A stretch of 64,000 nucleotides of DNA, taken from positions 8,957 through 72,956 of the forward strand of contig JAWOCD010000085.1 of the NCBI GenBank assembly GCA_046483985.1, written 5' to 3'. The DNA comes from Promethearchaeia archaeon. Its GTDB lineage: Archaea; Asgardarchaeota; Lokiarchaeia; Sigyniarchaeales; SOKP01. A model generated the notes under the pieces. The model searched no databases, had not been told where the DNA came from, and was given only the letters and a program-made list of their open reading frames with translations. Positions 17,606 through 45,803 of this stretch are shown here, piece after piece (position 1 is the stretch's first letter; the number at the start of each line of letters is the position of its first letter). Both the position numbers and the translations under genes were made by a program.

Positions 17606-17747
17606 TTCTTAAGTACACTTGGATAGTTTTAATAAATTAGATTAATTCTATAATATTAACTTTTATTATTAATCTGGAAATTAAAGCTTATAATTTTTGG
17701 AGATTATCTTGATTTTTGAAAGAGCCTATTTCCCACAAGATCTCAAT

Positions 17748-28810: not shown

Positions 28811-29803
28811 GTGAAAAGGATGAGAGCGGCAGTTTTTGAGGATGTTCGAAAAATTTCCTATGAAGAAGATTATCCCAAGCCAGAAATCACTCCCGACCAA
28901 GTGTTGGTCAAGGTCGCTTATTGTGCTATCTGTGGCACTGATGTGACTAATTATAAAAAGAAATTATATCAAACTCCAGTGGTGATGGGTCATGAATTTT
29001 CAGGTACCATTGATAAGATAGGAAAAAATGTGCAAGGATTTCAAGTAGGGGATAAAGTCGTGGGTATTAATGTTTTATTGGAGATTGGGCGTTCAGATTC
29101 TGGAGGGATGGGCATTTTCAAAGATGGAGGGTTTGCAGAATATGTGGCGGTTCATAAAAACGATTTGTTTCATGTTCCCTCGCCCAATTCGCTAAAAGAG
29201 TGTTCCATGATAGAATCATTTGCTGTCTCCGTCCGGGCATTCAAACGATGTAATATGTCTAAACATCAGAAGATTGTAATTATAGGCGGTGGAAATATAG
29301 GGCTAGGGGCACTTAATATTCTAAAGAACCAATATGATCCGGAATATGCAGTGGTGGTTGAAATCTATGAACCTTTAAGAAAAAAAGCGAAAGAATTGGG
29401 TGCAGATGATACTCTTCCTCCCAGCAAGGCGAAATTAAGGAGATATTTCAGAAAAAACGGAGAACCCGATTATATCCTTGATTGTGCGGGAAACGACAAG
29501 ACATTCGATCTGGCTATTAATACGATAAAAAGGGGGGGAACGATTGTGTTAGAAGGAATCTATAAAGGCAATGTCGAATTCCCTCTATTTTTAATGAATA
29601 ATAAGGAAATCACGCTTATTGGCACTTTATCTCATGACCGAGAAGACGTACAAGATACAATTGATCTCTTTACTAGTGGAAATGTTCAACCTGCCAAATT
29701 AATCTCTGATGTTATTCCTTTATCCGAAATACAAGAAGAAGGGTTCGAGCGCTATATGACTGATCAAGAAAGAGATTTTATCAAAATATTAGTGGAAATC
29801 TAA
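28811..29803 (+). CDS. zinc-dependent medium-chain alcohol/polyol dehydrogenase
   Basis: CAICGTDV and GHEFSGTI zinc-ligand motifs and a Rossmann IIGGGNIG. The start is GTG at 28811 or ATG at 28820. Confidence 0.8.
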   Translation: MKRMRAAVFEDVRKISYEEDYPKPEITPDQVLVKVAYCAICGTDVTNYKKKLYQTPVVMGHEFSGTIDKIGKNVQGFQVGDKVVGINVLLEIGRSDSGGMGIFKDGGFAEYVAVHKNDLFHVPSPNSLKECSMIESFAVSVRAFKRCNMSKHQKIVIIGGGNIGLGALNILKNQYDPEYAVVVEIYEPLRKKAKELGADDTLPPSKAKLRRYFRKNGEPDYILDCAGNDKTFDLAINTIKRGGTIVLEGIYKGNVEFPLFLMNNKEITLIGTLSHDREDVQDTIDLFTSGNVQPAKLISDVIPLSEIQEEGFERYMTDQERDFIKILVEI

Positions 29804-30390
29804 ATTTTTTCAGATCTTTCAATTACCTTTTTGCTCATCAATCTAAATGCAGTTTCTACATTATTTCCTGTCTTTGCGGAAGTAATTATTGTTTCCAAAG
29901 CGTTGATTTCCTCACCTAAAGAATCCAATTTCTCTTGGTTTACCTTTCTGGGGAGATCTGCCTTATTTCCAACTAAAATGAGGGGAATTTCATCATTACA
30001 GTGTTCCATCAAATCGGGAAACCAGAATGTTTCTATCTCTTCAAACGTCTTTTCTCGAGTAAGGTCCCCGATAATTAATGCACCTTGAGCCCCACCATAG
30101 TAAAGATGTCTAGTTTTCTTCCACCGTTCGTGCCCAGCAATATCCCATAATTGAATATCTACATGGTGATCTTTATCCTTTTCAACGGGGATGTCCATAT
30201 TTCCTAATTCTAATTTTTTCACATACATATTGACCCCGATGCTTGCTCTATAATCATTCAGAAAATGTCCCGAAACGAAACGTTCGGCTAAACTGGTTTT
30301 TCCAACGCCCGGTTCACCAGTTATAACAACCTTAAACACCCAATATCGTTCAGAAATTGTTCTATTTTCACTTTTCAAGATTTCATTCAC
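29800..30390 (-). CDS. Ras-superfamily small GTPase, Rab-like
   Basis: G1 GEPGVGKTS, G3 WDIAGHERW (compare Rab WDTAGQERF), G4 GNKADL, G5 TSAKTG. No C-terminal Cys lipidation motif. Confidence 0.85.
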   Translation of the reverse strand: MNEILKSENRTISERYWVFKVVITGEPGVGKTSLAERFVSGHFLNDYRASIGVNMYVKKLELGNMDIPVEKDKDHHVDIQLWDIAGHERWKKTRHLYYGGAQGALIIGDLTREKTFEEIETFWFPDLMEHCNDEIPLILVGNKADLPRKVNQEKLDSLGEEINALETIITSAKTGNNVETAFRLMSKKVIERSEKI

Positions 30391-30548: not shown

Positions 30549-31640
30549 ATGACAACCGGAATAATTTACGATGATATCTACCTTGAGCACCGCATCGGAA
30601 CCCATGTGGAGAGCCACAAACGGCTTATCGGAATTATGGATTTATTACGAAATAGAGGCTTATTAGATAATCCGGATTATCAAGTTATCAAACCGTATAA
30701 GGCAACCCTGGATCAAATCAAATATGTACACAATGTAGAATTAATCAAAGAAGTAAAAGAAATTAGCAAATTAGCCGAGAAAACTGGGCATATCCAACAG
30801 CTTGATATGGACACCTCCGTTTCTGCAAAAACTTATGAAGCGTCCCTTTATTCTGTGGGAGGAAACTTGAAAGCTATCGATGAAATCCTCAATGGAAACA
30901 TCAAAAACGGATTTGCTTTAGTAAGACCCCCCGGTCATCACACGAATGCGTATAAATGTTCTGGATTCTGTTTTTTTAATAACATAGCAATTGCAACGGA
31001 GTACTTATTAAGAGATAAAGATATTGATCGGGTCGCAATTATTGATTGGGATTGTCACCACGGCAACGGCACTCAAGATATTTTTTATAAAGGCTCACCT
31101 TCGGGTGAAGGCGAGGTTGTCTTTTTTAGTTCTCATCAAGATGGGAGGACCCTGTATCCAGGAAGCGGGTTTGAAAATGAGATTGGAGAGGGAAACGGAA
31201 AGGGCCATATCATTAATTTTCCCATGCCACCTAACTCTGCCGACGATGCGATTATGGAATTCTTTCATGAAATAGTATCACCTCTCTTAAACGAATATGC
31301 TCCCCAATTTATCTTGATCTCTGCAGGATTTGATACCCACTACACAGATCGCCTCACAGGGATGGGTTGGACTTACCAAGCTCCGGCCAATTATCTCAAA
31401 TTAATTAAAGCCATTGCACATGAATATGCAAACGATAGAATATTAATTACCTTAGAAGGGGGATATGATATAGATAAACAAGCACGGGCGGTATATAATT
31501 GCCTCAAGGTACTTAATGATGAGGAGGACTTAATCACGGAAAAGCCCAGAACGTCCGACTCCGAACTGTTGACATACTTAGATGGGAAATTGTTTCCGAA
31601 ATTAAAGGAAAATCTGGCGCCATTTTGGGAATGCTTTTAA
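30549..31640 (+). CDS. histone deacetylase-family (class II/AcuC-like) deacetylase/amidohydrolase
   Basis: RPPGHH, DWDCHHGNGTQ and SAGFDTH motifs, followed by EGGY. Confidence 0.85.
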   Translation: MTTGIIYDDIYLEHRIGTHVESHKRLIGIMDLLRNRGLLDNPDYQVIKPYKATLDQIKYVHNVELIKEVKEISKLAEKTGHIQQLDMDTSVSAKTYEASLYSVGGNLKAIDEILNGNIKNGFALVRPPGHHTNAYKCSGFCFFNNIAIATEYLLRDKDIDRVAIIDWDCHHGNGTQDIFYKGSPSGEGEVVFFSSHQDGRTLYPGSGFENEIGEGNGKGHIINFPMPPNSADDAIMEFFHEIVSPLLNEYAPQFILISAGFDTHYTDRLTGMGWTYQAPANYLKLIKAIAHEYANDRILITLEGGYDIDKQARAVYNCLKVLNDEEDLITEKPRTSDSELLTYLDGKLFPKLKENLAPFWECF

Positions 31641-31852: not shown

Positions 31853-32950
31853 ATGTCGGACGAGAATGAAAAAAAAGAAGATAAAGATGATGATCTTGAT
31901 TTAGATTTTGACTTACCGGATTTGGGCTTAGAAGATGAGGAGGAACCATCAATGCCTCCACCGACCGAAGCTCCCCCCTCACCGGCACCGACAGAACCAT
32001 CAGCACCGACAGAACCATCAGCACCGACAGAACCATCAACTATGAAAGCACCAGAACCCACCTCTTCATCCCCTTCCCCTGAATCCACACCCTCGCCCAC
32101 ACCAACTACCGAATCTATGTCCGCACCACCTTCGCCTACACCCTCAACCGAACCAGAATCAACTGCTCCCTCTCAAAATGAATTGGATAATATGCAACAA
32201 CAAGTAAGCGCGAAGGACCAAAAGATAAATGAACTTCAAAACAAAATAAATGAATTGAACAACCAACTGAGTCAAGCAAGCGGAGAAACATCCAACCTTC
32301 AATCCCAATTGACCCAAAAGGAGAACCAGATCAACCAACTGAATAATGAATTGCAAAATACAAAAAATTCGATGCAACAGTTACAATCGCAAGTTAATCA
32401 ATTACAATCCGAAAAAGAACAACTCCAAGATCAAATTCCGAACTTGCAACAGCAAATACAACAGCTACAGCAAGAGAAAGCTAATTTGCAAGGTCAGATC
32501 CAACCTCTCCAACAAAAAATACAGCAATTGGAGCAAGATGTTGCGTATAAGGATAAACGTATCAAAGAATTGAAGGAACCAAAGGCAGTTATGGGCTCGT
32601 CTCTCTCTCAAGAACAACCAAGCTCTCCAGGAGCTTCTCAAAGCAGTAGTTCATTTGGAAGCTCCTCTTCCAGCGTAATGGGGGGCGGCGGACAAACAGG
32701 AACATCTGGCACTACTGGAGGCGGTACGGGAGGCGGTACGGGAGGCGGTACGGGAGGCACTACTGGAGGCGGTACGGAACAGACTCCCTCGGTGGACGTA
32801 GGAGGCACTCGAACAAAGTGTCCAAATTGTGGAGCAACCGGTCAAGCCATTAAGGAAGTTGAAGATAAAAGTAAAGTCATCAGCTATATCCCCAAACCAA
32901 TTTATGCCAAGAAGTATGTGTGCACTAAGTGTGGATATGAATTCTCATAA
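31853..32950 (+). CDS. hypothetical modular protein: acidic N-terminus, P/T/S-rich repeats, Q/N-rich coiled coil, G/T-rich repeats, C-terminal zinc ribbon
   Basis: 365-aa ORF. The heptad-like NELQNKINELNNQLSQ...QIQQLQQEKANLQGQIQPLQQKIQQLEQD region precedes a C-terminal CPNCG...CTKCG. It contains two perfect in-frame tandem repeats. Confidence 0.55.
   Translation: MSDENEKKEDKDDDLDLDFDLPDLGLEDEEEPSMPPPTEAPPSPAPTEPSAPTEPSAPTEPSTMKAPEPTSSSPSPESTPSPTPTTESMSAPPSPTPSTEPESTAPSQNELDNMQQQVSAKDQKINELQNKINELNNQLSQASGETSNLQSQLTQKENQINQLNNELQNTKNSMQQLQSQVNQLQSEKEQLQDQIPNLQQQIQQLQQEKANLQGQIQPLQQKIQQLEQDVAYKDKRIKELKEPKAVMGSSLSQEQPSSPGASQSSSSFGSSSSSVMGGGGQTGTSGTTGGGTGGGTGGGTGGTTGGGTEQTPSVDVGGTRTKCPNCGATGQAIKEVEDKSKVISYIPKPIYAKKYVCTKCGYEFS
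31985..32038 (+). repeat. perfect 18-bp x3 tandem repeat (GCACCGACAGAACCATCA), in frame (APTEPS)
   Basis: Read directly from the sequence. Confidence 0.95.
32717..32752 (+). repeat. perfect 12-bp x3 tandem repeat (GGAGGCGGTACG), in frame (GGGT)
   Basis: Read directly from the sequence. A related ACTACTGGAGGCGGTACGG occurs at both flanks. Confidence 0.9.
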
Positions 32951-33216: not shown

Positions 33217-36200
33217 ATGTCGTTAGAGAGAGAACTCTTAGAGCCGCAAATTAACAAAAAACGTGCTGCTGCCGTTTTTTTAATTGCTATCCTCTTAATC
33301 GCTTTTTTTTCACTCTCTACTGTATTATTCAACTTTTTATTGGGTTCACAACGTATAAATCCCAATGAAAAGCTTGATGATGCGGATTTTGAGGATGTTA
33401 CCTTAAATATGCCCGACATTCCCTTTGATCTGGAAGATCTTATTGATGCGTTGGATCCGGAAGATTTGGAAGATTTAGACCTAACTGAAGAGGATATCGA
33501 TGAACTCTTCCAAGAAATGTACGATGGCGATATCGATAATATGGACTTAAGCACGATGGGAGCAGCAATGGCAGCTCTCCTCGGGTCCGATGAGGAGGTA
33601 TTTCGAATTTTTGATTACGACAATTTTGACAATTTGTCCGATAAGCTCTGGCGCTATGAATGTTTTGAAGAGTATAACGGAACCAGCTGGAAATCTTCGG
33701 CAAGTAAACAAATATTCGATTTTTATTCGTATGGGGATTTAGAGGGAAGCGAAGACATTTTGAGGTTAAAGAGGGCCATGAATCCCTCATCAGATCAGAA
33801 CTCATTTGTGGCTCCCGCTCTTTTTCCGAATCCTAATATTATGGAAGGGAGCGTGAGCGGAGATACCTTGGATGAGAGTTCTGCAACACTTTACAAGGAT
33901 GATTATAATTGCACCACCATGGATGCAACCTTTACCAGCGATCAAGAAACCAATATGTCGTATGAATTATTTGGAACGCCCCAACCCAGCCCCGAAGATT
34001 TAAATTCGAGCCAAGTTGACGAGTCCTTTACTCCATCCGCAATTAGAGACCTCTATTTACAACTCCCGCCCTCAATCTCCACTTACAGGGCCAATCATGA
34101 TGACTTTGACAGGCATTGCGACAACTTAGAGGTCATCATTAAGGAAGACGATGGGGCATATACAGTCGCAAATAAGATACGGAACTATTTGCAAGCGAAT
34201 TTTACCGATCCCTACAGTGGAGGAGCAGAGATTTATACGGATGATGGCCCCGCAGAAGGAGAGGATGAAATAGAATGGTTCTGTGAAAAGGAGGGGGGGT
34301 TATGGTCTCATTTCGCTTCAGCTTTTACTGCATTTACCCGGGTATTCGGTGTTTCTAGCAGATATGTTAACGGATTTAATAGTCGGGCCCTCGATGAGGT
34401 CTCTGACCCTCAAGAAGGAGAAGATGCGGCGGTGGTCCGATATAAAAATTTGTATAATTGGGCAGAAATCTATGTTCCTACAGATACCTCTGGAAATGGA
34501 CGTTGGGTGGAGATGGATATTAATTTCGAGACCTTTGGAAGTGGAGGAATGACCGCGCCAGAAGGGGAATATAATATTACGCTTACTTCTAATGTTACTG
34601 GACCGATAAATCGTGGAAATATTGCAGAACTGAATGCCTCACTGAGTTCAGATACGGGAGATGTAGAGGATAAGGAAATAAAGTTCTATGATCATAATAA
34701 TCCTGAGACACCATTAGGTTCTGCAATTACTAATGCCAATGGAAATGCCACTCTACTCGTTGATATTAATGATACACAAGTTGTGGGCCCTCATAATATT
34801 TATGCTACTTATTACACCTCCTATTCAAATCCGATAACTTATTTAATTAACGATGATATTGTCGTTCATTTATCCAGGGTTAATCCGCAAGAAGTTAATA
34901 GATCGGATTCTAATCCCGATGAGACAACTATTAAAGGTAATGTCTATGATCCTGCAAATAATGAAGGGGTGCGGGATGCTGATATTGAATATGTATTGTT
35001 AGAAAAAGGAACCAATAACAAATATAATAGTGCATTTACTCCAAATTGCTCACAAACAAATAGCACGGGAGATTTTGAAGATACTATTTCTGTTAATGCC
35101 CCACCAGCAGCACCTTATGGAACATTTGATATAAGAGTTGATTTTAATGGAACGTGGAATGATGGTCTTTATGTATCTGAGCTCATGGAAAATTCCAGTA
35201 ATCGCATCGAGTTTAATCATACGAGTACTCATAGTGTTAACTTTTACATAAACAACACTGATTCAACCAATTATGAAAATCCCACGGTAAATAGAACCGA
35301 TTCGTTACATTTAAAAGCGAAAGTCGTTGCTTCCGATGGTTCGACAATTCCAGATAAGGATGTGCAATTTATTAATGCCGATAACAATTCTACACTTTTC
35401 ACAAATACTACAAATGCTGATGGACTTGCCACCTATACCTTTGATTTAAATTCCTCTGTTTTGGCGGGTCCAAACTTACTCTGTGCTCAAGTGGGATATG
35501 TCACCAATTATTCCTATTTTGTTTTGGAAGAGAAACCAACCATTCATATAAATTCTGGACCAACTCCCAGAGAGATAAATAGAACAGGTTCAGGAATTAA
35601 AGAATTTTCTATTCCTGGCAGCATTAATGATACTAATGGCAATCCAATTCCATATGCCGAAATTGGATTGAGGATATTTAGAAATTCAACAGATTTCTCC
35701 GAGTATTTAAGTCCCCCTGATCCTCCCAAGGTTAATTCTGACGGAAAATTTAATTTTACCTACGGAGTTTCTGAAAATATTCCATACGGAAATTATACAT
35801 TACGGATGGACTTTAACGGCACAGTGGATCGGTCAGACGATTCAGATTATCCTCATTATTTTGAATTGTCCGAGATGGATAACTCAACCATTCTTACAGA
35901 TGAGTTAAAGGTTGAGGCACCTGATGAGTTCACAATGGATTTTTTCATTGATGGATACAGCAATGATGATTTTTATTCGCCTAATATTACCCGAAATGAT
36001 GAAGTAAACTTATCGGTTGAAATCCAATGGGGTATGGATCTTGCAAAGGACGGAGATATCGTTACCTTCAGGGACCATACTCAAGATCTCGTTATCGCCG
36101 AGAAAGAACTTAGTAACGGTCAAGCGAGTGTTAGTTATGAAATGAATGATACTATTGTGGCAGGACCCCACCTTATTTCCGCAAGCTATGATAGAGCTGG

Positions 36201-37686
36201 AGCTGGAGAAAAAAATCATTCTTATTTCATTTTGGATGCTCCTATTGATATTGACCTGGATTTTGTCCCGCAAACAATTAATAGTACCGGGAACATCGGT
36301 AGGAATTTTGTTGTTCGCGGTTCTTTGAAAGATCCTTCAAACAGTAAATCTGTTAAATATGGGCAAATTTCAGTCCATATGCTTGATGGTAATGACGACG
36401 TTTCTTTCTATCTCAATCAAGAAGCGGGGGATTTGGCTCTAAATGAGACAGGGGAGATTTATGCCGAATTTAGCGTTAGCGAGAGTACACCTCCAAAAAA
36501 TTATACAATAGAGACTCGTTTTAACGGCACCTTTTTGTACACCAATTCTGAAGAAGATTACCAATATGATTATTTCTTGCCCGAATGGAGCAATTTCTCG
36601 GCGGCGAACGAAAGTGAAAATGAACTAGAAGTAATTAACCCTGAAGAATTATCTATTACATTTAAAATCGGAGGAGAACATACAAGACCAACCTATGATA
36701 ATAGTAATCCACCTGCAACATATCAAAAAGGAGAGAATGCCACCTTTGAGGTCTGGGTCAATCATACGACAACGGATGAAGGAACTGTCCGGCTTATGGA
36801 CAATTACACCGGAACTGAATTGGATTCTGCCGAAGTTAATATAACTGAGGGGGGATATCATGAATTTAGTATAAATACCACCGATTTGCACGCTGGATTA
36901 CATAGAATAATTGTTACTTATGAGGATTTCAACACGATTAATGATACATATATAGTAATAAACGAGAGTGTAGATATCTCCAGTGAACTAAGTGTGGAAA
37001 AAGTAAGGAGAAATCAAAATGGATTTTCGGTAGAGGGAAATGTCACCGATGAGGGTGAACCCTTAAGAGCCTTAAATCTTAGCATTAATTTCTATGATTC
37101 CTCAATGCAAGATGCTTCGGATTATTTCAATTTAGAAGGATCTTCGTCCATAATAGTTCAAGAAGATGGGACATATTGTTTTAATATCAGCTACGTGGAT
37201 CTGGAGGCTCCTCAAGGGCAGTATTATGTGCAGATTAATTTCACGGGCGATATAATTGAATTACCGGATGTTCATCTCACCGATTATATGGTCCATAGCA
37301 ACAGTAGTTGTATGACCTTGAATGTAACGGCGGGTACTACTATTACCGAAGGAGATTCTTATACTTTAAATGAAAAAGAAGAAAAATGGTATAATGATGA
37401 TATTCTATACGTTACCGGTAATTTAACGTGGGATAACGGAAGCGCAATGGAAGGGTATAATGTGAATGTGACCATAGAGGATGAAAACGGAAACGTTATA
37501 GCATTCAATGATACGGTGACCGTCGATTCCAGCGGCTTTTTCAACGGCTCGCTTACTGTTGACTCGAATTGGCCAACCTATCAAGAAGATACAAGTATTA
37601 AGGTCGAGTTTAATCCCTTTGATGAGCATAATTTTGACATGACAGATGGTTATTATGTTGAAGGTTCTAGTCAAGAATATACTTAA
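33217..37686 (+). CDS. large N-terminally anchored surface protein with transglutaminase-like core (Cys and His positions substituted) and many Ig-like/sequon-rich repeats
   Basis: N-terminal TM (AAVFLIAILLIAFFSLSTVLFNFLL). TGase-like core EKEGGLWSHFASAFTAFTRVFGVSSRYVNGF...YNWAEIYVP...GRWVEMD. More than 1000 aa of repetitive beta-rich sequence follow, with dozens of N-x-S/T sequons. Confidence 0.7.
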   Translation: MSLERELLEPQINKKRAAAVFLIAILLIAFFSLSTVLFNFLLGSQRINPNEKLDDADFEDVTLNMPDIPFDLEDLIDALDPEDLEDLDLTEEDIDELFQEMYDGDIDNMDLSTMGAAMAALLGSDEEVFRIFDYDNFDNLSDKLWRYECFEEYNGTSWKSSASKQIFDFYSYGDLEGSEDILRLKRAMNPSSDQNSFVAPALFPNPNIMEGSVSGDTLDESSATLYKDDYNCTTMDATFTSDQETNMSYELFGTPQPSPEDLNSSQVDESFTPSAIRDLYLQLPPSISTYRANHDDFDRHCDNLEVIIKEDDGAYTVANKIRNYLQANFTDPYSGGAEIYTDDGPAEGEDEIEWFCEKEGGLWSHFASAFTAFTRVFGVSSRYVNGFNSRALDEVSDPQEGEDAAVVRYKNLYNWAEIYVPTDTSGNGRWVEMDINFETFGSGGMTAPEGEYNITLTSNVTGPINRGNIAELNASLSSDTGDVEDKEIKFYDHNNPETPLGSAITNANGNATLLVDINDTQVVGPHNIYATYYTSYSNPITYLINDDIVVHLSRVNPQEVNRSDSNPDETTIKGNVYDPANNEGVRDADIEYVLLEKGTNNKYNSAFTPNCSQTNSTGDFEDTISVNAPPAAPYGTFDIRVDFNGTWNDGLYVSELMENSSNRIEFNHTSTHSVNFYINNTDSTNYENPTVNRTDSLHLKAKVVASDGSTIPDKDVQFINADNNSTLFTNTTNADGLATYTFDLNSSVLAGPNLLCAQVGYVTNYSYFVLEEKPTIHINSGPTPREINRTGSGIKEFSIPGSINDTNGNPIPYAEIGLRIFRNSTDFSEYLSPPDPPKVNSDGKFNFTYGVSENIPYGNYTLRMDFNGTVDRSDDSDYPHYFELSEMDNSTILTDELKVEAPDEFTMDFFIDGYSNDDFYSPNITRNDEVNLSVEIQWGMDLAKDGDIVTFRDHTQDLVIAEKELSNGQASVSYEMNDTIVAGPHLISASYDRAGAGEKNHSYFILDAPIDIDLDFVPQTINSTGNIGRNFVVRGSLKDPSNSKSVKYGQISVHMLDGNDDVSFYLNQEAGDLALNETGEIYAEFSVSESTPPKNYTIETRFNGTFLYTNSEEDYQYDYFLPEWSNFSAANESENELEVINPEELSITFKIGGEHTRPTYDNSNPPATYQKGENATFEVWVNHTTTDEGTVRLMDNYTGTELDSAEVNITEGGYHEFSINTTDLHAGLHRIIVTYEDFNTINDTYIVINESVDISSELSVEKVRRNQNGFSVEGNVTDEGEPLRALNLSINFYDSSMQDASDYFNLEGSSSIIVQEDGTYCFNISYVDLEAPQGQYYVQINFTGDIIELPDVHLTDYMVHSNSSCMTLNVTAGTTITEGDSYTLNEKEEKWYNDDILYVTGNLTWDNGSAMEGYNVNVTIEDENGNVIAFNDTVTVDSSGFFNGSLTVDSNWPTYQEDTSIKVEFNPFDEHNFDMTDGYYVEGSSQEYT

Positions 37687-37710
37687 TATAATCAAGAAGG
37701 TCAAATGTAA

Positions 37711-39342
37711 ATGGTGGGATTGAAAAGAAAAAAGAGCAGAAATAAACCCCGCATAAAAATATTAATTATCCTTTCCCTTTTCATTTTGATAATCTTTTTA
37801 AGGGGAAGGGACAATTTACCAGATATCAGCGATTATTCAAGTATGCAAGATATCAAAGATAGGGACCGTTCTCAAGATTTGAAGCTTTCTTCTATTGAAG
37901 CTAATTTAACTTTAACAAATGCGGAAATGATTAATAATTCAAGGTTTTCTCATTATCAAAACATTCCAATCAATGGAAATCTTATTCATGCTATATCTGG
38001 TGATCCATATCCGAATTATAGTGTTTCTGTTAAAGTTAATGGTGAATTATTTCCTCGCTATAATGCCACAACAGACGAGGACGGTAATTTTACCATCAAT
38101 TATAATATCTCAGATTCACTTAATATTTATACTTCTCATAAAATCGAGGCCGAAGTTCTTAATGATACGGAAAGTGATATAGATTATCTCAATCATTATA
38201 TTATCTTTTTAAATACGACTTCTGAATTTGATATAGATGAGGGTGATTGGTCAGATACCGATATTCCTTATCTGACCGGAGAGCCTTTTAACACAAACGG
38301 ATATTTAAGATATGTTAATGGGACGGGAATTGCAGGGGGGATAGTAAATTTTTATTGGTATCATGATGGAGAAGTGCTTGATTCTGGAACGACATCAACT
38401 AATAATAATGGGGAGATAAATTCCTTGCCAATCCCAGAAACTGAATTGGAAGAACTATCATTAAAATTAAACTTCTCCGATTTCCCTTATGTGAATTATT
38501 CGGAATGGATTCTTCCAGAAACAATTGAAGTTTTTTCCAATATTTCGTGTCAGTGGGATGTAGAAAGCACCTCTACGGAATTTGAGGATTTTACCATTCA
38601 AGGTACCCTTGTATCGTCAGCCAATAGTAGCTTTTTTATTAATGATCGCCAGATTGCACTTTTATATAATGGAGAACTGGTTGGCCAGGTGAGCACTAAT
38701 AGTGATGGTTCGTTTTCCTATACATATAATATCCCTGAAGGAACGGGAGCCAATAATTTACAAATAAGATTGATTAATGATGCGGGAAAAATTGAAACGT
38801 CTAATAGTTACACTATTGAGGTGTATGAAGGAGAAGAGGAAGCAGTCGTTCCACCCGACGATACAGAAGATGATACGCCAGCCCCGTTTGTAAACTTTTT
38901 TATTTATTTTATTCCGATTGTAGCGGGGATTATTGTAGCCTTAACACTACTGGGGTATAAATACCTACGACAACAAGAGGAGGCTTCAAGAACGGTCAAA
39001 GTACCTTTGGGAGACAAATTACTTAATTTAAAAATGCTGAAAGAGTCAGGAAGATTAGAAGAAGCATTATCTTATCTTTTTAATGCGATATATATGGATT
39101 TAATTAACGCAAAATTTGGTCGCAGCAAAAAAGCGTCTGAGACCATCAGGGATATTGCGATTGTGTCGGTAAAAGATCTAAAACTTCCGCCGGAAAAAAT
39201 ATATCCCTTCATCACGAAGATCGAAGAAGTTATTTATGCTCGGCCACATAAAATAACCGAAGAGGATTTTAAAAAGGCGCTTGCGCTATTTTCACCGGTC
39301 TACTATGAATTGACGAGTCAAAAATTTAATTTAAAAATTTAA
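37711..39342 (+). CDS. surface protein with N-terminal anchor, sequon-rich ectodomain, C-proximal TM and cytoplasmic DUF4129-like module
   Basis: N-terminal TM IKILIILSLFILIIFL, many N-x-S/T sites, a second TM FVNFFIYFIPIVAGIIVALTLLGY, then LSYLFNAIYMDL...TIRDIAIVS...ITKIEEVIYARPHKITEEDF, typical of the DUF4129 layout. Confidence 0.6.
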   Translation: MVGLKRKKSRNKPRIKILIILSLFILIIFLRGRDNLPDISDYSSMQDIKDRDRSQDLKLSSIEANLTLTNAEMINNSRFSHYQNIPINGNLIHAISGDPYPNYSVSVKVNGELFPRYNATTDEDGNFTINYNISDSLNIYTSHKIEAEVLNDTESDIDYLNHYIIFLNTTSEFDIDEGDWSDTDIPYLTGEPFNTNGYLRYVNGTGIAGGIVNFYWYHDGEVLDSGTTSTNNNGEINSLPIPETELEELSLKLNFSDFPYVNYSEWILPETIEVFSNISCQWDVESTSTEFEDFTIQGTLVSSANSSFFINDRQIALLYNGELVGQVSTNSDGSFSYTYNIPEGTGANNLQIRLINDAGKIETSNSYTIEVYEGEEEAVVPPDDTEDDTPAPFVNFFIYFIPIVAGIIVALTLLGYKYLRQQEEASRTVKVPLGDKLLNLKMLKESGRLEEALSYLFNAIYMDLINAKFGRSKKASETIRDIAIVSVKDLKLPPEKIYPFITKIEEVIYARPHKITEEDFKKALALFSPVYYELTSQKFNLKI

Positions 39343-39446
39343 CCGTTTCACCAGACAAGTTATAAAAAAAATGTGTGAATTAAAAAATCAAAATTTAAAT
39401 CAAAAAACCATTATAAATTATATATATTGAAAATAAAACATCTTAG

Positions 39447-39827
39447 GTGGGAAAAATAGGATTATTCTCAAAAGAGGAACAAAAAAAGTTTGATATCGAG
39501 GATAAATTCGAGAATGTTCAAATTTTAGTCGATAGCGACAGATCGAAGGAGGCGATCGCATATATTTATTTAATTTACAATGATCTCATGAAACATGAAT
39601 ACGATAAACCACGACTTGCCCATCAAACTATTCGGGAATATGCGATAAAATGTGTTAATGACCTAGATCAAAATCCTGGCTCCGTATATACTTTTATTAA
39701 AAAGATTGAAGATATTATTTATGGGGGCGTTGAGCCAACCATTCCAGAAATAAATAAGACGATAAATCTCTTTTCGTCCTTATACCAAGAAATCACCAAT
39801 AAGAGTTTCTCTTATAATATTAAATAA
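39447..39827 (+). CDS. small stand-alone DUF4129-like protein (paralogue of the C-terminus of the upstream gene)
   Basis: 126 aa with a GTG start. AIAYIYLIYNDLMKHEY...TIREYAIKCVNDL...IKKIEDIIYGGVEPTIPEINKTINLFSSLYQEI aligns by eye with residues after the second TM of the 37711 gene. Confidence 0.5.
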   Translation: MGKIGLFSKEEQKKFDIEDKFENVQILVDSDRSKEAIAYIYLIYNDLMKHEYDKPRLAHQTIREYAIKCVNDLDQNPGSVYTFIKKIEDIIYGGVEPTIPEINKTINLFSSLYQEITNKSFSYNIK

Positions 39828-39890
39828 TCTTTTCATTATAATTAAAAAAGAAATTATAAAATTTAATCAAAACTGACTTTTGAGTGAACG

Positions 39891-41639
39891 ATGGCTATAT
39901 TTAGTGGAAAACCTTCAGAAAAGAGTATTAATATTTCAAAGGGTATATTATATGGGTTCTTTACCTTTTTTCTTGTCTTTTACGGGGTTATTCTTACCGT
40001 TTTCATTCAAGAGTTTGGAAGACAACATCCGGGAATTTTTCCCTATTTTGTGAACTATTTCCCGCTTGTATGCTATATCGCCGCTATTTTCATGGGTCTC
40101 CGCTTTTTAATTTTTATTCGAAACAAAAGGACCAGGAAGGTCAGAGAAAAGCGTTCTCGAAAAAAACTCAAAAAGGGGTCTGTCTATCGAAAGGCGTTAT
40201 TTTTAATTATTTTTATCTTTTCCTTTGTACCTCTCTTATCTCCGGTAATTGATCAAGGCAAGAACGACCATAATTTTTCTGCTTATAACGAGGGTTGGAA
40301 CGGCGGTTCAGATTTTAAAGCCTTGGTAGAAGATGAGGGATATGAGACCTATAATGTTCAATCGAGTCTGAGTGCCACTCAACGTCTCAATAAATCAATG
40401 CTGTTAGTCTTATTTGGTCCCAATCAATTTTATAATCCAATCTATGAGATTCCGTTTTTTATAAATTTTTTCGAAAATAATAATTCGCTCTTGCTCTTAC
40501 ACGATTTCGGGTCCACTAGTGCGCTGTTGTGGGAAATTTTTGCCGCAAACTTGGCAGATCCGAACGTAAAAGATAAAACTCCTGTAACTATCTTTCCAGA
40601 TGGGGTTCTACGAGACAATGAATCATGTTTAGTGAACGAGGAAGGAAAAAAAGATCCCCAATTCCCGGTCGTAACGAACTTTCAATCGCATCCTACAACT
40701 GAGGGGGTGAATAATGTTCTTCTTGCTCGAGCATCCGCTGCCTTGGGGGGACCTTTTCTTGAGTACTTCGGCTGGAATCCGATTGCTTATACCAGCATGT
40801 ATAGTTTTATTGATAAAAATGAAGATGGAGTATATAACATAGAAGACGATAATATTGATCTAAGTTTCATTGATAATGTGATAGGGGAAGACTTTCCATT
40901 AGATCTGAGTAAATTCCCTCTGGGGGGGTATCCGCAAACTCCGTTTATGAGTAAACAAGCGGATAACGTAAGACTTTTTGTCTCGGGGGATGCGAGTCTT
41001 TTCAATAATGATCTTTTGAACCGAGAAGAATTTGACAATGCACGGTTTGCTCGGAATATAATAAATTGGTTAACCTATGAAAATGGAGAGGATTGGATAG
41101 TTGTATTTGATGAAGCACATATTAGGCCTGAATATTCCCGAGATTTGAGTTCTGCCGGCATTTTTGGGTTTATTATTCAATATGTGGTGCATTTATCTAC
41201 TAATCCGATTACGGCATGGATTTATCCGCTGCTGGCCATTTATCTTTTACGAAAGTATCTTCCTAAAAAAAAGGAGAAGGAAAGGGAAGAAAAGGAGAAA
41301 CAAGAAGAAGAGAAGAGAAAATTTAGGACATCCTCCTTTTTTGCACGTAAAATTAAATGGTATCGTTCAAACCAAAAATTCGATAAAGCTCTCTTGCTTT
41401 TATACAGGCGTTTAGAGCGAAAACTTAATGCCCAATTGGGAGGGAAAAATATCACCACTGAAAATGTGATTAACATGGTTTCTGCAAAGGTTCCAAATAT
41501 ATCAAAACAGAAGTTGAAACGAATTGGTAAATTTATGAATAAAATATTAGCAATAAAGAAAAACGAACTGGATGTTCAAGACCAGAAGGATTTTGAGAAT
41601 TTATTCTTCGAAATGGAATGGGTTATGGAAAACATCTAA
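39891..41639 (+). CDS. membrane protein with DUF4350-like ectodomain and C-terminal DUF4129-like module
   Basis: N-terminal TMs. SAYNEGWNGGSDFKALVEDEGYETYNV...LLVLFGPNQFYNPIYEIPFFINFFENNNSLLLLHD fits the DUF4350 pattern. A late TM and a K/E-rich linker precede ALLLLYRRLERKL...VINMVSAKV. Confidence 0.5.
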   Translation: MAIFSGKPSEKSINISKGILYGFFTFFLVFYGVILTVFIQEFGRQHPGIFPYFVNYFPLVCYIAAIFMGLRFLIFIRNKRTRKVREKRSRKKLKKGSVYRKALFLIIFIFSFVPLLSPVIDQGKNDHNFSAYNEGWNGGSDFKALVEDEGYETYNVQSSLSATQRLNKSMLLVLFGPNQFYNPIYEIPFFINFFENNNSLLLLHDFGSTSALLWEIFAANLADPNVKDKTPVTIFPDGVLRDNESCLVNEEGKKDPQFPVVTNFQSHPTTEGVNNVLLARASAALGGPFLEYFGWNPIAYTSMYSFIDKNEDGVYNIEDDNIDLSFIDNVIGEDFPLDLSKFPLGGYPQTPFMSKQADNVRLFVSGDASLFNNDLLNREEFDNARFARNIINWLTYENGEDWIVVFDEAHIRPEYSRDLSSAGIFGFIIQYVVHLSTNPITAWIYPLLAIYLLRKYLPKKKEKEREEKEKQEEEKRKFRTSSFFARKIKWYRSNQKFDKALLLLYRRLERKLNAQLGGKNITTENVINMVSAKVPNISKQKLKRIGKFMNKILAIKKNELDVQDQKDFENLFFEMEWVMENI

Positions 41640-41798
41640 GGTTTTCTAAAATTTCTTTTTCTTTTTTATTTTTACTTCTAAAAGTATAAACTAATCTCTC
41701 TTTTTTTTTAGCCACATAGATTTATAACGCAAAATTACCAAATAGACCAAGTTGATTGATTATGAACAATATCAAAAATGGGAGGAATAAAAAAATAT

Positions 41799-42776
41799 TT
41801 AAATCGGAACAGGAATTTCCTCTAAGATACTATTAATTACTCCCTTAACATCTAAACCCTCTAATTCCGCTTCGGGTTTTAGTAAAATACGATGATTTAA
41901 GGCGGGGATTGTTAAGGCTCGTACATCATCAGGGGTTACATAATTCCTGCCAAGAATCGCTGCGCGCGCTTTTGAACATTTCATTAACACAAGCGATGCT
42001 CTTGGGCCTGCTCCCATATAAATCTGCGGATGATTTCGAGTCTTTAATGAGATGTCCCGGATATATTTAAGAATTCGTTGGTCAATATAGACTAAATTCA
42101 TAAGATCTTGAGCTGCCAACAGCTCTTCAGCATCAGTTACTGGTTCAATTGAAGGTAAATGACCGCTGAGTTGCCTTGACATGATTTCAACCTCTTCATC
42201 TTGTTCTGGATAGTCTAACCAAAGCTTGAAAAGAAATCGGTCAACTTGTGCTTCGGGGAGGGGGTATGTCCCTTCCATTTCCACGGGGTTCTCAGTTGCT
42301 ACCACTAGAAAAGGTTTTTCTAGTTCTAATGTTTTCCCTTCAATGGTTACTTGTCGTTCTGCCATCGCTTCGAGAAGTGCAGCTTGCGTTTTAGGGGCGC
42401 TCCGATTAATTTCATCCGCTAAGACTAAATTAGCAAACACTGGCCCCTTTTGAAGAACAAAACCTCCCTCATTTTGATCAAAGATTTTTGTACCAGTAAT
42501 ATCGGCCGGTAAGAGATCGGGGGTAAATTGAATTCTGGAAAATGAGATTCCAAGCGTTTTAGCAAAAGTTTTTGCCATCACCGTTTTACCGAGTCCAGGG
42601 ACTCCTTCCAGTAACACATGACCATTAACTAAAAGGGCAATAAATAATTGCTGCAAGATTTCCCCATTTCCAACAATAACTCGGCTAACTTCACTTAAAA
42701 CTTCTTGAGCAATTTCACGAATCGGTGAAACATCTAATTCCTCTTGTTGTTCATAATATTGGGCTTTTTCAGCCAT
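41799..42776 (-). CDS. moxR: MoxR-family AAA+ ATPase
   Basis: Walker A LLEGVPGLGKT, Walker B LADEINRSAPKTQAALLEAMAE, ATENPVEMEGTYPLPEAQVDRF and the C-terminal lid. At 325 aa the length is typical. Confidence 0.9.
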   Translation of the reverse strand: MAEKAQYYEQQEELDVSPIREIAQEVLSEVSRVIVGNGEILQQLFIALLVNGHVLLEGVPGLGKTVMAKTFAKTLGISFSRIQFTPDLLPADITGTKIFDQNEGGFVLQKGPVFANLVLADEINRSAPKTQAALLEAMAERQVTIEGKTLELEKPFLVVATENPVEMEGTYPLPEAQVDRFLFKLWLDYPEQDEEVEIMSRQLSGHLPSIEPVTDAEELLAAQDLMNLVYIDQRILKYIRDISLKTRNHPQIYMGAGPRASLVLMKCSKARAAILGRNYVTPDDVRALTIPALNHRILLKPEAELEGLDVKGVINSILEEIPVPI

Positions 42777-42960
42777 TGAGAATTCACTTCTTTAAATCTT
42801 TACTTATCAATAAAAGATATTGATTTAATTTATATAATTATAAGATAAATCAATTTTATATTTTTATTTTTTCGCGTTCGATTTCTTCAACAATCTATGC
42901 GCAATTCATAAAAAGTAAAAATATATAATTTATAATTATTATTATAATTAAAAATAGAAT

Positions 42961-42975
42961 TTCTCACAGTGAGAA
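42961..42975. promoter_or_regulatory. perfect palindrome TTCTCAC-A-GTGAGAA in the moxR/DUF58 divergent intergenic region
   Basis: 7-bp arms around a single central base, read directly from the sequence. It lies about 75-85 bp upstream of the DUF58 ATG. Its function is not established. Confidence 0.2.
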
Positions 42976-43047
42976 TAAAAAATATAAACCCATTTTTTTT
43001 AGGAACGGTGAAGTGATATTTTAGGTGGAAAAGGGCGCTTATTGGTC

Positions 43048-44346
43048 ATGTTTTCCATATTCTTTTTATGTGCGGGATTTGCATTTATCAATTATTTTTT
43101 GATCTTCTTTGCCATTTTATTATTATTCAGTACTATTATCAGTTTGCCCGTGTTTTATTATCAAACAAACATTGAAGAACTCAAAGTCCATCGCGAGCTT
43201 GAAAAGAAAAAGATTTTTAAAGACGATTTCGTCCATATTAAAGTAACCATAGAGAATATAGGAAATAGCAGTTTCGATTTTATAGAAATTCGTGATCAAT
43301 TTAATCCAGAATTGTTTCGCCTTGTTTTGGGAGAAAATTTCATATCAACCCGAATTGGAAGAAAGAGCACGATAAAATTTTCTTATGTGCTTGAACCGAA
43401 AGTGAGAGGAGAATATCCTTTAGGTCCACTCTCTGTAACGGTAAAAGATCGTTTGGGGTTTAACTCACTTGAGAGAGTTGTACCAGATAGTGTGACGGAT
43501 ATTTTGATTTATCCTCCTTATGAAGATATAAAACGGATTGAAATTCTTGGATCAAAACGGTCATTGCAACTGAACTATGGAGCACAACGCTCCAAGCAGA
43601 AAGGTCTCGGAAGCGAGTTTTACGGAATGCGGAAATATGTTTTTGGTGATCAATTTCGCCTAATCGACTGGAAAGCATCTGTACGGACACAAAAACTAAT
43701 TGTCAAAGAATTTGAATCAGAAAGAGATATCACCTGTATGATTTTGGTGGATTCTTCAAACAGTATGGCAGGTGGGGCAATAGATAATACTAAATTCGAA
43801 TATGCCATACGTGCATGTATGTTATTAACAAAGGTGGCATTAACAAGAAGAGACCAAGTGGGCGTATTTACCTTTTCAAATAATAAAAATATGAATCTTT
43901 CTGAGCCGAAGGGAGGAGAAGACCAGTTCTATCAAGTTTTAGATGCAATTGCCAAGGTAAAACCAGAAGGACAGTGTAAATTTAGAGAATCTATGGACTA
44001 TTTCACAAAACGCCACCAAAAACGGAGTTTAATTTTTATTATCTCTGATCTAGAACCAGATGTAAAAGACATCGTGGAGGGAGTCCGAAAACTTATTCCC
44101 TTTGACCATACCATAATAATGATTAATCCGTTTAGCCCATGGTTTGAGATTCATGAGACGGATTTATCTTCCACGGATAAAGCCCTTGCAGAGGCGATCT
44201 CCGAGGAGATGATGGAACATGTATTACATATAAAACAAGAGGTACGAAATTTGGGAGTCAGTTTAATTCATGTAGGGCCAGACGATATGATGCAAAATAC
44301 ATTAACCAAGTATTTAGAGGCAAAAAAAAAGGGGAGGGCCTTCTGA
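43048..44346 (+). CDS. DUF58-family protein (vWA-like, MoxR partner)
   Basis: N-terminal TMs, the characteristic FRLIDWKASVRTQKLIVKEFESE motif, then the vWA-like ILVDSSNSM. The ATG at 43048 is preferred over the TTG at 43042. Confidence 0.8.
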   Translation: MFSIFFLCAGFAFINYFLIFFAILLLFSTIISLPVFYYQTNIEELKVHRELEKKKIFKDDFVHIKVTIENIGNSSFDFIEIRDQFNPELFRLVLGENFISTRIGRKSTIKFSYVLEPKVRGEYPLGPLSVTVKDRLGFNSLERVVPDSVTDILIYPPYEDIKRIEILGSKRSLQLNYGAQRSKQKGLGSEFYGMRKYVFGDQFRLIDWKASVRTQKLIVKEFESERDITCMILVDSSNSMAGGAIDNTKFEYAIRACMLLTKVALTRRDQVGVFTFSNNKNMNLSEPKGGEDQFYQVLDAIAKVKPEGQCKFRESMDYFTKRHQKRSLIFIISDLEPDVKDIVEGVRKLIPFDHTIIMINPFSPWFEIHETDLSSTDKALAEAISEEMMEHVLHIKQEVRNLGVSLIHVGPDDMMQNTLTKYLEAKKKGRAF

Positions 44347-44348
44347 TT

Positions 44349-45803
44349 ATGGCGAGATATTATTTAACCGTCTTGAATATTATAAACGCCTTAATTTTTA
44401 TTTGGATTATTGTTCTTTTTAATTCTATTTTCAATTTCGATCTAGTCATCACCACCGCTGAAAACGAGTTAGTATTTTGGGATGTACTCATCGCCTTGCG
44501 AAATATTCTTACATATGGGGCATATTTATTTCTCTATATTGTGGCATATTTTACTGCGCTAATTGTAAGCGGAGTATTTAGCTCTTTTGCTTATTTTGAG
44601 ACCAATTTTATGTTTAATTTTATCGGTTTCTTCTTTAAATTTTATTTAGAATCGTGGTTTAATTTTCCAGGGGGAGAAACTCCCTCATTGATCAGGATTC
44701 CCGCATTAATGGCACAAGAAGCATCGGTATTTACTAATAATTTATATTTGCTAATCTTCCAGATTTTATTTGTAATATCTGTATTCTATGCGATTCGCGC
44801 CATTTTTAAAAACGACGTGAAATATAATTTTATAGCAATTGGAAGTTTAGTTCTCATGATTGTTATGCCTTTAATGATTTTTGGATTTCGGGATATGTTA
44901 CGCTTATTTACCTTAAAGGTTCCTTTTCTTGAAAATCTGGAAAATCCAGTAGATCCAAGCCTCACTGAATTACCGCTTAATGATTTCTTTGGATTTATAT
45001 TTAGTTCGATTTTCTTATTTGCCATAATCAGCTATATTTATTTGGAAATGGCTTTTCAGATTAGTTATATTGATACAGTCACCAAACCCAGTCTTGAGAG
45101 AGAAGACCGATTAGAGGCTCAAATTGATCTTCTACGCAAAGAATCTGCTCATATTACAGCTAATGTTGATAAAATACGGGAGGAAGCACAACAAAGAAAA
45201 GAAGAGCTTGGCATTGAAAAAAAAGAATCTGTAAGAGAATTTTTTACCCAGAAAGAAGAAAGGTTTTCCTATGTAAAAGAGATGGTACGGCGTAAAAAAT
45301 TGGAGGAAGAAGAGAAAAAATTGGTGACCGCAGCTTCCAAAACTCGCAGATTAGGTAGATATATTGATCGATTATTCCGTGAAGATCCGGAAGCTGAAGA
45401 TGCCATCACAGCAAAGTCATCAGCGCCCACTCCCAAGAGTCTTGCATCGTCTACTGGTCTCAATTTTGCATTTCGATTAATTCTATTAATCTTTCTCAGT
45501 TATATTATTATTCATCCTCATTGGTTTTTTAAGGAAGTATTTAATTTACCACCCTCTATTATTGAAAGTGTTTCAATGTATTCTCCCGAGGTTATCATTA
45601 CTTTAATGATACCATTTGTTCTTTTATTTCCGGTAATTTCAAAGGTAATTTCCTATATTAAACATCGTAATCTAATCATTCGTTTGAAACAAGAAGGAAG
45701 AATCAAAGAGATTTTGGCTTCAGTCGGAGACTATGTAAAAAAAATGGAGGAAGGAGAAGAAATAGCTCAAGAAGAAGATCTAGAGGAAGAAAGCGAAGAA
45801 TAA
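44349..45803 (+). CDS. polytopic membrane protein with central coiled-coil loop and acidic C-terminus, unknown function
   Basis: 484-aa ORF starting 2 nt after the DUF58 stop. Several hydrophobic helices, a charged helical segment (EAQIDLLRKESAHITANVDKIREEAQQRKEELG) and a C-terminal EEEDLEEESEE. Confidence 0.55.
   Translation: MARYYLTVLNIINALIFIWIIVLFNSIFNFDLVITTAENELVFWDVLIALRNILTYGAYLFLYIVAYFTALIVSGVFSSFAYFETNFMFNFIGFFFKFYLESWFNFPGGETPSLIRIPALMAQEASVFTNNLYLLIFQILFVISVFYAIRAIFKNDVKYNFIAIGSLVLMIVMPLMIFGFRDMLRLFTLKVPFLENLENPVDPSLTELPLNDFFGFIFSSIFLFAIISYIYLEMAFQISYIDTVTKPSLEREDRLEAQIDLLRKESAHITANVDKIREEAQQRKEELGIEKKESVREFFTQKEERFSYVKEMVRRKKLEEEEKKLVTAASKTRRLGRYIDRLFREDPEAEDAITAKSSAPTPKSLASSTGLNFAFRLILLIFLSYIIIHPHWFFKEVFNLPPSIIESVSMYSPEVIITLMIPFVLLFPVISKVISYIKHRNLIIRLKQEGRIKEILASVGDYVKKMEEGEEIAQEEDLEEESEE

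Follow-up and report, generated by a model that had tools for sequence, protein, structure and literature searches.

The window analysed here, a 64,000-nt stretch of a metagenome-assembled contig from a member of the Promethearchaeia (Lokiarchaeia, Asgard archaea), contains 34 open reading frames (ORFs), of which seven adjacent ones, g1 to g7, fill positions 33217-45803 exactly (Table 1). They encode two large proteins with immunoglobulin-like (Ig-like) ectodomains (g1 and g2), a small helical protein (g3), a DUF4350 protein (g4), a MoxR-family AAA+ ATPase (g5), a DUF58 protein with a vWA domain (g6), and a polytopic membrane protein (g7). In our best reading, the cluster combines an Asgard version of the MoxR-DUF58(vWA)-TgpA-like operon with the archaeal DUF4350 (arCOG01314) envelope module. 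At a probability of roughly 0.45, somewhat short of even odds, we favor the view that its products form one membrane-spanning complex, in which MoxR and the vWA protein act on cytoplasmic DUF4129 “handles” of a membrane stalk complex. A first-pass annotation of this DNA had delimited the same seven genes, and its coordinates are exact.

Results

Conservation across Asgard genomes

Scanning a single genome for each GTDB species, we found 117 relatives of g4; 80 loci were retrieved, from 80 different assemblies. The order histone-deacetylase-family gene, coiled-coil gene, g1 to g7, CofD, CofE is identical in 80/80 of these loci. Typical identities to the window proteins are ~84% for MoxR, ~78% for DUF58, ~62% for g3, and ~56% for both g4 and g7, and are lowest for g2 (~41%) and g1 (~39%); the cytoplasmic and membrane parts are far better conserved than these two ectodomain proteins. 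Such synteny alone proves no linkage, because the flanking histone-deacetylase-family, CofD, and CofE genes are equally syntenic. More telling are four distant loci (L083, L085, L088, and L089) in which the gene set is kept but the flanks differ. At L083 and L088 the cluster is compact, with five genes, namely one for a fused protein (transglutaminase (TGase) domain, Ig-like domains, transmembrane segment (TM), DUF4129), a DUF4350 gene, MoxR, DUF58, and a g7-like gene. L085 has the five-gene set plus a 125-aa DUF4129 gene, and L089 has a split seven-gene form. NCBI labels for relatives of the cluster proteins at the distant loci are Helarchaeota, Freyarchaeota, and Hodarchaeota. Because the set is retained while its flanks have changed, the cluster is a module and not just a piece of local synteny.

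The first-pass annotation had described an expanded cluster of the MoxR-DUF58-transglutaminase type, and both its families and its neighborhood are recovered, the latter in the 80 related genomes as well as in distant Asgard loci with other flanks. At the level of individual families, AAA_3, DUF58, and Transglut_core were found outright, DUF4350 at threshold, and DUF4129 only indirectly, as described below.

The stalk proteins g1 and g2

g1 is an anchored protein with a transglutaminase-like core and Ig-like repeats, as the first-pass annotation had it, although that annotation mentioned neither the loss of catalytic residues nor the minus-strand position of the MoxR gene. A single N-terminal TM anchor (aa ~12-44) precedes a Transglut_core domain (PF01841; aa 315-434; E 3.7e-10; 40.5 bits versus a cut-off of 23). 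Further Pfam matches are to Big_3_5 (3.5e-19), MG2, bMG3, and CarboxypepD_reg-like families. The stalk (aa 455-1400) consists of four tandem ~235-aa double β-sandwich units with 18-30% pairwise identity, and the C-terminal end is an MG2-like domain. PF11992 (TgpA_N/DUF3488) has no match in g1, which has only the one TM, and PF07760 has none in g1 or g2, though both are Ig-like.

A weak alignment to the TgpA structure (6g49), which we used to set the active-site register, places W360 at the catalytic Cys position and N414 at the His position, with Asp433 kept. Among 46 g1 orthologues, the Cys site is occupied by Trp in 36, Tyr in 7, Phe in 2, and Ser in 1; the His site is Asn, Ser, or Thr in 46/46, and the Asp is retained. 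The transglutaminase-like domain is thus a predicted pseudoenzyme in this clade. Because both catalytic Cys and His are replaced in every orthologue, canonical transamidase or peptidase chemistry, which would cross-link or cleave, is excluded here. In most distant Asgard relatives, too, the catalytic Cys is missing, the site having Ser, Asp, Pro, Gly, or Thr instead; Cys, His, and Asp are all kept in one distant relative, P0363, which is labelled Freyarchaeota and encoded at locus L088.

In g2, which had been annotated simply as an anchored protein, TM segments stand at both ends of the ectodomain. An N-terminal signal-anchor is followed by the Ig-like ectodomain (aa 37-388; its Ig-like Pfam matches are sub-threshold), a TM (389-419), and a helical module (427-542). 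A hidden Markov model (HMM) of g1 and one of g2 both match a single fused protein, the former in its N-terminal and the latter in its C-terminal part; at L083, L085, and L088, it is the C-terminal part of the fused protein that the g2 HMM picks out. Since both HMMs match the fused protein, g1 and g2 are, as judged from these profile matches, the two halves of what is a single TgpA-like protein (TGase-Ig-TM-DUF4129) in other Asgard lineages.

Both proteins had also been described as sequon-dense, and the counts bear this out. Of the 59 N-x-S/T sequons in g1, 53 lie in the stalk, versus 19.0 +/- 3.8 after shuffling (z = 9; reached in 0/2000 shuffles), and the g2 ectodomain has 13 versus 6.6 expected (reached in 15/2000 shuffles). 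These are the two highest sequon densities among the ORFs of the window, and across g1 orthologues the median observed/expected ratio is ~2. The excess is confined to predicted ectodomains and is not seen in DUF58, MoxR, g3, or g7. The stalk complex (g1, g2, and g4) is probably N-glycosylated. The further proposal that these proteins belong to protrusions or adhesins found no support.

Divergent DUF4129 modules

Three DUF4129-like modules had been annotated in the cluster, in the g2 tail, g3, and the g4 tail. The first two stand, through a family profile, and the third does not. None of the three regions gives a direct Pfam match to DUF4129 (PF13559), even at E<=10, and of the 33 g3 homologues scanned, no more than 3 get to E 0.02 (best E, 0.021). 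With an HMM built from the g3 family, the g2 tail (aa 427-542) scores E 6.7e-26. We combined the g3 family and the g2 tail into a profile, A4, and searched it against 1.84 billion representative proteins. This found 133 proteins in which the matched region is always either a stand-alone protein of ~125 aa or the extreme C terminus of a protein of 500-2000 aa. Among the matches are four distant relatives, P0326, P0334, P0345, and P0367 (at 7e-10 to 2e-4), that score 27.9-36.8 bits for PF13559 (cut-off, 24.8) at exactly the profile-matched region and also carry Transglut_core and Ig/MG2 repeats. NCBI names for P0334, P0326, and other hits, or for members of their clusters, are transglutaminase or DUF4129 protein, with lineages given as Helarchaeota, Freyarchaeota, Ranarchaeia, and Hodarchaeota. 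Partial, sub-threshold TgpA_N matches occur in P0345 and in another distant relative, P0325. Because the profile links the two modules to distant relatives with above-threshold PF13559, the g2 tail and g3 are best classed as divergent DUF4129 domains, recognizable through the family profile. The 125-aa gene of L085 that is equivalent to g3 carries PF13559 itself.

The g3 protein shares 57-88% identity with 32 homologues, among which the motif QTIREY is invariant. Its AlphaFold2 (AF2) model is a confident five-helix bundle (predicted local distance difference test score (pLDDT), 89.2), and a Foldseek comparison of this model with the PDB returned only non-significant HEPN-like helical bundles (TM-score ~0.5). 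For the g4 tail, the g3-family HMM gives no match and hhalign a probability of 0.2; we therefore reject it as a third DUF4129-like module, since neither method detects a relationship to the g3 family.

The MoxR ATPase and the DUF58 protein

The MoxR and DUF58 pair is as annotated. g5 matches AAA_3 (9.6e-65) and AAA_lid_2 (6.5e-22), has intact Walker A (GVPGLGKT) and Walker B (LVLADE) motifs, is 78-88% identical to its orthologues, and appears to be a functional-looking cytoplasmic MoxR AAA+ ATPase. Among the 80 related genomes, its gene is on the plus strand everywhere but in L045, where it alone is inverted relative to the cluster. In the window it is on the minus strand, and the inversion is common to the window's two closest relatives, L086 and L087, which are independent assemblies. 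The flanks of the gene contain only AT-rich, low-complexity inverted repeats, with no repeats of recombinase type. An invertible switch around MoxR was considered and rejected, as the repeats are of low complexity only and the inversion is fixed in the lineage of L086 and L087. It looks like a fixed single-gene inversion in this sublineage, and the intergenic region between g5 and g6 is presumably a divergent promoter region that the inversion created.

g6 matches DUF58 (6.3e-32) and VWA_2 (1.5e-10), with BatD/TRAP_beta-like Ig matches (aa 53-135) ahead of the vWA domain. Its metal ion-dependent adhesion site (MIDAS) motif, D-S-S-x-S/T (D237), is invariant in 46 orthologues. Residues 1-41 form a hydrophobic hairpin that every orthologue shares at the protein level (column identity, 0.89), followed by a K/R-rich segment. 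Because of this arrangement we place the Ig and vWA body in the cytoplasm, a predicted location based on the positive-inside rule and on the absence of sequons. The hairpin (43042-43164 in the window; 12885-13008 in L001) begins with a TTG start codon, or with an ATG two codons on. Several public DUF58 gene calls (391-393 aa) begin after it, so that these proteins are annotated without their membrane anchor.

The membrane proteins g4 and g7

The DUF4350 assignment of g4, also made in the first-pass annotation, is borderline on the protein's own score (PF14258; 6.1e-7; 30.3 bits versus a cut-off of 30.4, i.e. 0.1 bit short). What secures it is that PF14258 is present in many g4 homologues and in distant orthologues recognized by the g4-family HMM, which finds the DUF4350 genes of L083 and L088 at 7e-45 and 1e-62; one g4 homologue carries PF09822. 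Three N-terminal TMs precede the ectodomain, which is GldG/flavodoxin-like, and a polar TM and a cytoplasmic, K/E-rich helical tail follow it. The polar TM, QYVVHLSTNP (in the family, QY[IV][VI]HLSTNP), contains the most conserved peptide of the family, and together with the juxtamembrane residues it forms the best-conserved stretch of g4.

g7 was rightly annotated as a polytopic membrane protein. It consists of a TM bundle (~6 helices), a charged helical loop of ~120 aa, 2 further TM helices, and an acidic tail. In its AF2 model, six long N-terminal helices have a pLDDT of ~85, and the loop (aa ~250-350) has low confidence. The protein has no Pfam, NCBIfam, or PADLOC match and no PDB match by sequence or fold, and none of its 120 homologues has a Pfam domain. 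In sequence and profile searches against the PDB, g1, g4, and g7 gave nothing significant, only the weak alignment to TgpA. Orthologues of g7 come after DUF58 in L083, L085, L088, and L089. It thus appears to be a conserved family without a known match.

Discussion

Relation to known systems

The combination of genes seen here is better explored than the first-pass annotation implied, kindred complexes having been described in 2012 (PMC3495828) and 2015 (PMC5898192). Our literature search turned up no account of the cluster in Asgard archaea. Four systems bear comparison. First, Zhang and Aravind (2012; PMC3495828) described a conserved MoxR-vWA-TGL operon in bacteria and archaea and proposed a role in membrane-proximal proteolysis. 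TgpA of Pseudomonas aeruginosa, which is essential, resides in the inner membrane and has a catalytically active TGase domain in the periplasm; its gene shares an operon with PA2875 and PA2874 (PMC3507681). The Asgard cluster resembles the TgpA operon in having a MoxR AAA_3 ATPase, a DUF58/vWA protein, and a membrane protein with a TGase-like domain outside, then a TM and a cytoplasmic DUF4129. Unlike TgpA, whose triad is active, g1 lacks the catalytic Cys and His. It has a single N-terminal anchor in place of the 5-TM TgpA_N domain, a sequon-rich Ig stalk of ~1000 aa is inserted, and two genes, g1 and g2, share what TgpA carries in one protein. The free DUF4129 protein g3, the DUF4350 protein, and g7 are extras relative to the TgpA operon.

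Second, Makarova, Galperin, and Koonin (2015; PMC5898192) predicted an archaeal secretion or membrane-remodelling complex from the association of arCOG01314/DUF4350 with MoxR, Ig-vWA, Ig-like membrane, and multi-TM proteins. They read the archaeal Ig-vWA proteins as secreted, related the DUF4350 fold to GldG of the ATP-binding cassette (ABC) transporter associated with gliding and the type IX secretion system, and listed as associates Ig-like proteins of the membrane or S-layer (among them arCOG02884 and pfam07760) and 5-TM proteins (arCOG07126, arCOG11232). A membrane-anchored DUF4350 ectodomain, a COG0714 MoxR, Ig plus vWA, and Ig-like and multi-TM membrane proteins occur together, in one predicted operon, in both. 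The description of arCOG01314, however, lists neither the transglutaminase-like nor the DUF4129 component, both of which the Asgard cluster has. g4 also differs in having three extra N-terminal TMs instead of a signal peptide, and the Asgard vWA protein looks cytoplasmic, not secreted.

Third, the actinobacterial Esr clusters (Actinomycetales; 2026 preprint, bioRxiv 10.64898/2026.09.08.750141) encode a secreted protein containing 14 Ig-like repeats together with MoxR, vWA, and a transglutaminase, and Esr is described as a threat sensor that acts through kinases and FHA proteins. These clusters and bifidobacterial PFNA share with the Asgard cluster the set of MoxR, vWA/DUF58, transglutaminase, and a long Ig/FN3-repeat surface protein. 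Esr and PFNA have, in addition, their own Ser/Thr kinase, phosphatase, FHA proteins, and a beta-propeller sensor head, and the transglutaminase there is proposed to be a filament anchor; the Asgard cluster lacks those signalling parts, and its TGase-like domain appears inactive. Fourth, the mycobacterial Rv3689-Rv3695 genes (DUF4350, MoxR2, DUF58, SpoIIM-like, RDD) show the same DUF4350-MoxR-DUF58 adjacency and also include polytopic membrane proteins, but they have no giant Ig/TGase surface protein, and their SpoIIM/RDD partners are not matched by g7.

How the complex could work

The proposed topology is that the ATPase, the vWA body, and the DUF4129 modules would lie inside, and the sequon-rich Ig stalks outside; hydrophobic segments, the positive-inside rule with K/R-rich flanks, and the distribution of sequons all point this way. 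In the pairs CbbQ-CbbO, NorQ-NorD, and RavA-ViaA, a MoxR AAA+ hexamer has as its partner a vWA/MIDAS adaptor, and the adaptor binds the client at an acidic residue. We use these activase pairs as a mechanistic template and claim no sequence-level orthology. Their clients are soluble or membrane enzymes that are given cofactors or reactivated, whereas the presumed clients in the Asgard system would be the DUF4129 tails of surface-protein anchors.

Judging by CbbQ-CbbO and NorQ-NorD, the vWA adaptor could grip an acidic residue on the DUF4129 handles through its MIDAS metal, and the near-invariant T-I-R-E/D motif is a candidate for the gripped site. The MoxR hexamer would then remodel the handles, namely the g2 tail and g3 and perhaps also the g4 tail and the g7 loop, and this could drive assembly, conformational maturation, or turnover and recycling of the stalk complex, a role suggested by the precedent of the family. 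The conserved polar TM of g4 and the polytopic g7 may couple the two sides of the membrane, and the pseudo-transglutaminase head may bind a peptide or glycan ligand instead of catalyzing. The pseudoenzyme and the relation of g1 to g2 as halves of one protein narrow the mechanisms to binding and remodelling, as opposed to cross-linking or proteolysis.

Three observations weigh against this picture. First, neither g7 nor the g4 tail can be assigned a function. Second, the cytoplasmic placement of DUF58, which depends on the positive-inside rule and the lack of sequons, contrasts with the secreted reading of archaeal Ig-vWA proteins (PMC5898192). Third, MoxR is transcribed separately in the window, from the opposite strand.

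Alternative explanations

Four other possibilities, in decreasing order of plausibility, can be set against the handle-remodelling complex. The first is an outside-in sensor, in which the stalk, with a ligand-binding pseudo-transglutaminase head, would sense a partner cell, an epibiont, or a virus, and the DUF4129 tails would relay the signal to MoxR-vWA, much as in the actinobacterial Esr pathway and in MoxR-vWA ternary conflict systems. The similar composition of the Esr clusters (bioRxiv 10.64898/2026.09.08.750141) and of PFNA speaks for this, as does the much faster evolution of the ectodomain proteins than of the cytoplasmic parts, and a dead TGase domain suggests binding and not catalysis. 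On the other hand, no gene for a Ser/Thr kinase, phosphatase, FHA protein, beta-propeller, or effector lies in or beside the cluster at the loci examined (the window, L001, L083, L085, L088, and L089), and the chromosomal position is fixed in the 80 genomes, unlike that of patchy mobile conflict systems. PADLOC returned no defense match beyond generic P-loop similarity, which counts against the sensor, and on this negative result we also rejected membership in a defense system. Sensing seems fairly unlikely.

The second is a secretion or membrane-remodelling apparatus, in which the DUF4350 protein, g7, and MoxR-vWA would export or insert the giant g1 or other cargo. This is the role predicted for arCOG01314 neighborhoods by Makarova, Galperin, and Koonin, and it agrees with the kinship of the DUF4350 fold to GldG (PMC5898192) and with the PF09822 found in one g4 homologue; the conserved, polytopic g7 could form a conduit. 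But no channel, ABC, or secretin component is recognizable, g7 is unmatched to any known transporter fold, and g1 and g2 carry ordinary N-terminal signal-anchors suited to Sec/YidC insertion. Moreover, no MoxR ATPase is known to power translocation. We judge export by this machinery to be distinctly unlikely.

The third, membrane-proximal ATP-dependent degradation, in which vWA would recruit a substrate, MoxR unfold it, and the transglutaminase-like peptidase cleave it, is the model put forward for bacterial and archaeal operons of precisely this type (PMC3495828). All three core genes occur here, and the distant P0363 retains Cys-His-Asp. For the clade studied here, however, the model is contradicted, because the nucleophile is missing (the Cys being W/Y/F, or S in one, and the His N/S/T, in 46/46 orthologues, with Cys also absent from most distant Asgard relatives) and because the TGase-like domain would be extracellular, across the membrane from the cytoplasmic ATPase, as TgpA's is periplasmic (PMC3507681). 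We give it almost no weight. Finally, that the genes are mere neighbors in a strongly syntenic region, without joint function, as the equally position-conserved but unrelated histone-deacetylase-family, CofD, and CofE genes might suggest, is just as improbable, given that the TGase/DUF4129, DUF4350, MoxR, DUF58, and g7-like genes stay together at the four distant loci, that gene fusion or fission links g1 and g2, and that DUF4350, MoxR, DUF58, and neighboring membrane-protein genes are co-regulated in Mycobacterium chelonae (PMC8191103).

Significance

Few prokaryotic gene clusters of unexplained function are as widespread as MoxR-DUF58-transglutaminase operons. Among known prokaryotes, Asgard archaea are the nearest relatives of eukaryotes, and their surface proteins are largely unidentified. 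Against this background, the cluster reveals no new principle; what is new is a fixed version of the module in several Asgard lineages, with its parts and predicted topology, the pseudoenzyme, and the g1/g2 halves. The products of g1, g2, and g4 are concrete candidates to look for in surface proteomes and in cryo-electron tomography of cultured Lokiarchaeia.

A bolder form of the handle-remodelling proposal can be imagined, in which a trans-envelope machine spread across several Asgard lineages would use a cytoplasmic, dynein/midasin-related MoxR and a vWA protein to control the deployment or conformation of giant, glycosylated pseudo-transglutaminase stalks. These stalks would form the irregular coat of Lokiarchaeia, and the machine would be a determinant of syntrophic cell-cell contact, with g7 as a new transmembrane coupler. 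This we consider improbable, and offer as speculation.

Gene content and surroundings

The predicted proteins of g4, g3, and g7 (Table 1) are identical to NCBI records R6U96_12955, R6U96_12950, and R6U96_12970, respectively, which belong to a contig of 78.6 kb; an exact-sequence lookup found no identical record for the window MoxR.

Table 1. Positions in the window and predicted content of the seven genes and of the intergenic region between g5 and g6
Feature	Position	Strand	Length and content
g1	33217..37686	+	1489 aa; TM anchor, acidic linker, predicted transglutaminase-like pseudoenzyme domain, double beta-sandwich repeats, MG2-like C-terminus
g2	37711..39342	+	543 aa; signal-anchor, Ig-like ectodomain, TM, putative divergent DUF4129 tail
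g3	39447..39827	+	126 aa; soluble five-helix module, putative divergent DUF4129
g4	39891..41639	+	582 aa; three N-terminal TM, DUF4350 ectodomain, polar TM, K/E-rich tail
g5	41799..42776	-	325 aa; MoxR-family AAA+ ATPase
Intergenic g5-g6	42777..43041	.	265 bp, AT-rich, between divergent MoxR and DUF58 genes
g6	43042..44346	+	434 aa; DUF58: hydrophobic hairpin, Ig-like domain, vWA domain
g7	44349..45803	+	484 aa; polytopic membrane protein

The surroundings are of a housekeeping kind, with genes for topoisomerase VI (Topo VI) A and B, an intein-containing MCM, AFOR, a histone-deacetylase-family protein, CofD, and CofE. Directly 5' of g1 in all Lokiarchaeial loci, and at 31853-32950 (+) in the window, is a gene for a 365-aa coiled-coil protein with crescentin-rod/tropomyosin-like Pfam matches, 21% Ser+Thr, and zero sequons. 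We considered it as a core member of the cluster and rejected it, since its Lokiarchaeial synteny is kept but it is absent from all four distant loci. The histone-deacetylase-family gene adjoins the cluster both in Lokiarchaeial genomes (30549-31640 (+) in the window) and in L088 (4516-5592 (-)), by coincidence or through old synteny. In two of the distant loci, a divergent helix-turn-helix regulator gene lies directly 5' of the fused TGase-DUF4129 gene, of MarR/AsnC type in L083 (9308-9772 (-)) and of TrmB type in L085 (8648-9484 (-)); the window has no equivalent of it. A complete Asgard-type cluster, with a g4 56% identical to that of the window, also occurs on contig DATKTW010000073.1 (L014) in a metagenome-assembled genome labelled “Candidatus Nanopelagicaceae bacterium”, probably a mis-binned Asgard contig.

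Genes for eukaryote-like small GTPases (Ras/Arf/Roc), leucine-rich-repeat proteins, and Roadblock/LC7 proteins lie a few kb 5' of the cluster in different genomes (29800-30390 (-) in the window, 533-1429 in L001, and 59-466 in L089). Farther upstream in the window, the MCM helicase gene (21299-24997 (+); 1232 aa in total) is split by an intein that contains a LAGLIDADG homing-endonuclease domain. At 1183 aa, the Topo VI B-like protein (7540-11091 (+)) is unusually long, with a transducer domain only at aa 715-862 and then a Rho_N-like motif, and the Topo VI A gene (11110-12300 (+)) comes after it. Finally, a gene at 17697-21143 (+) encodes a 1148-aa HEAT/Armadillo-repeat protein with adaptin-N, condensin Cnd1, and TOG-like matches.

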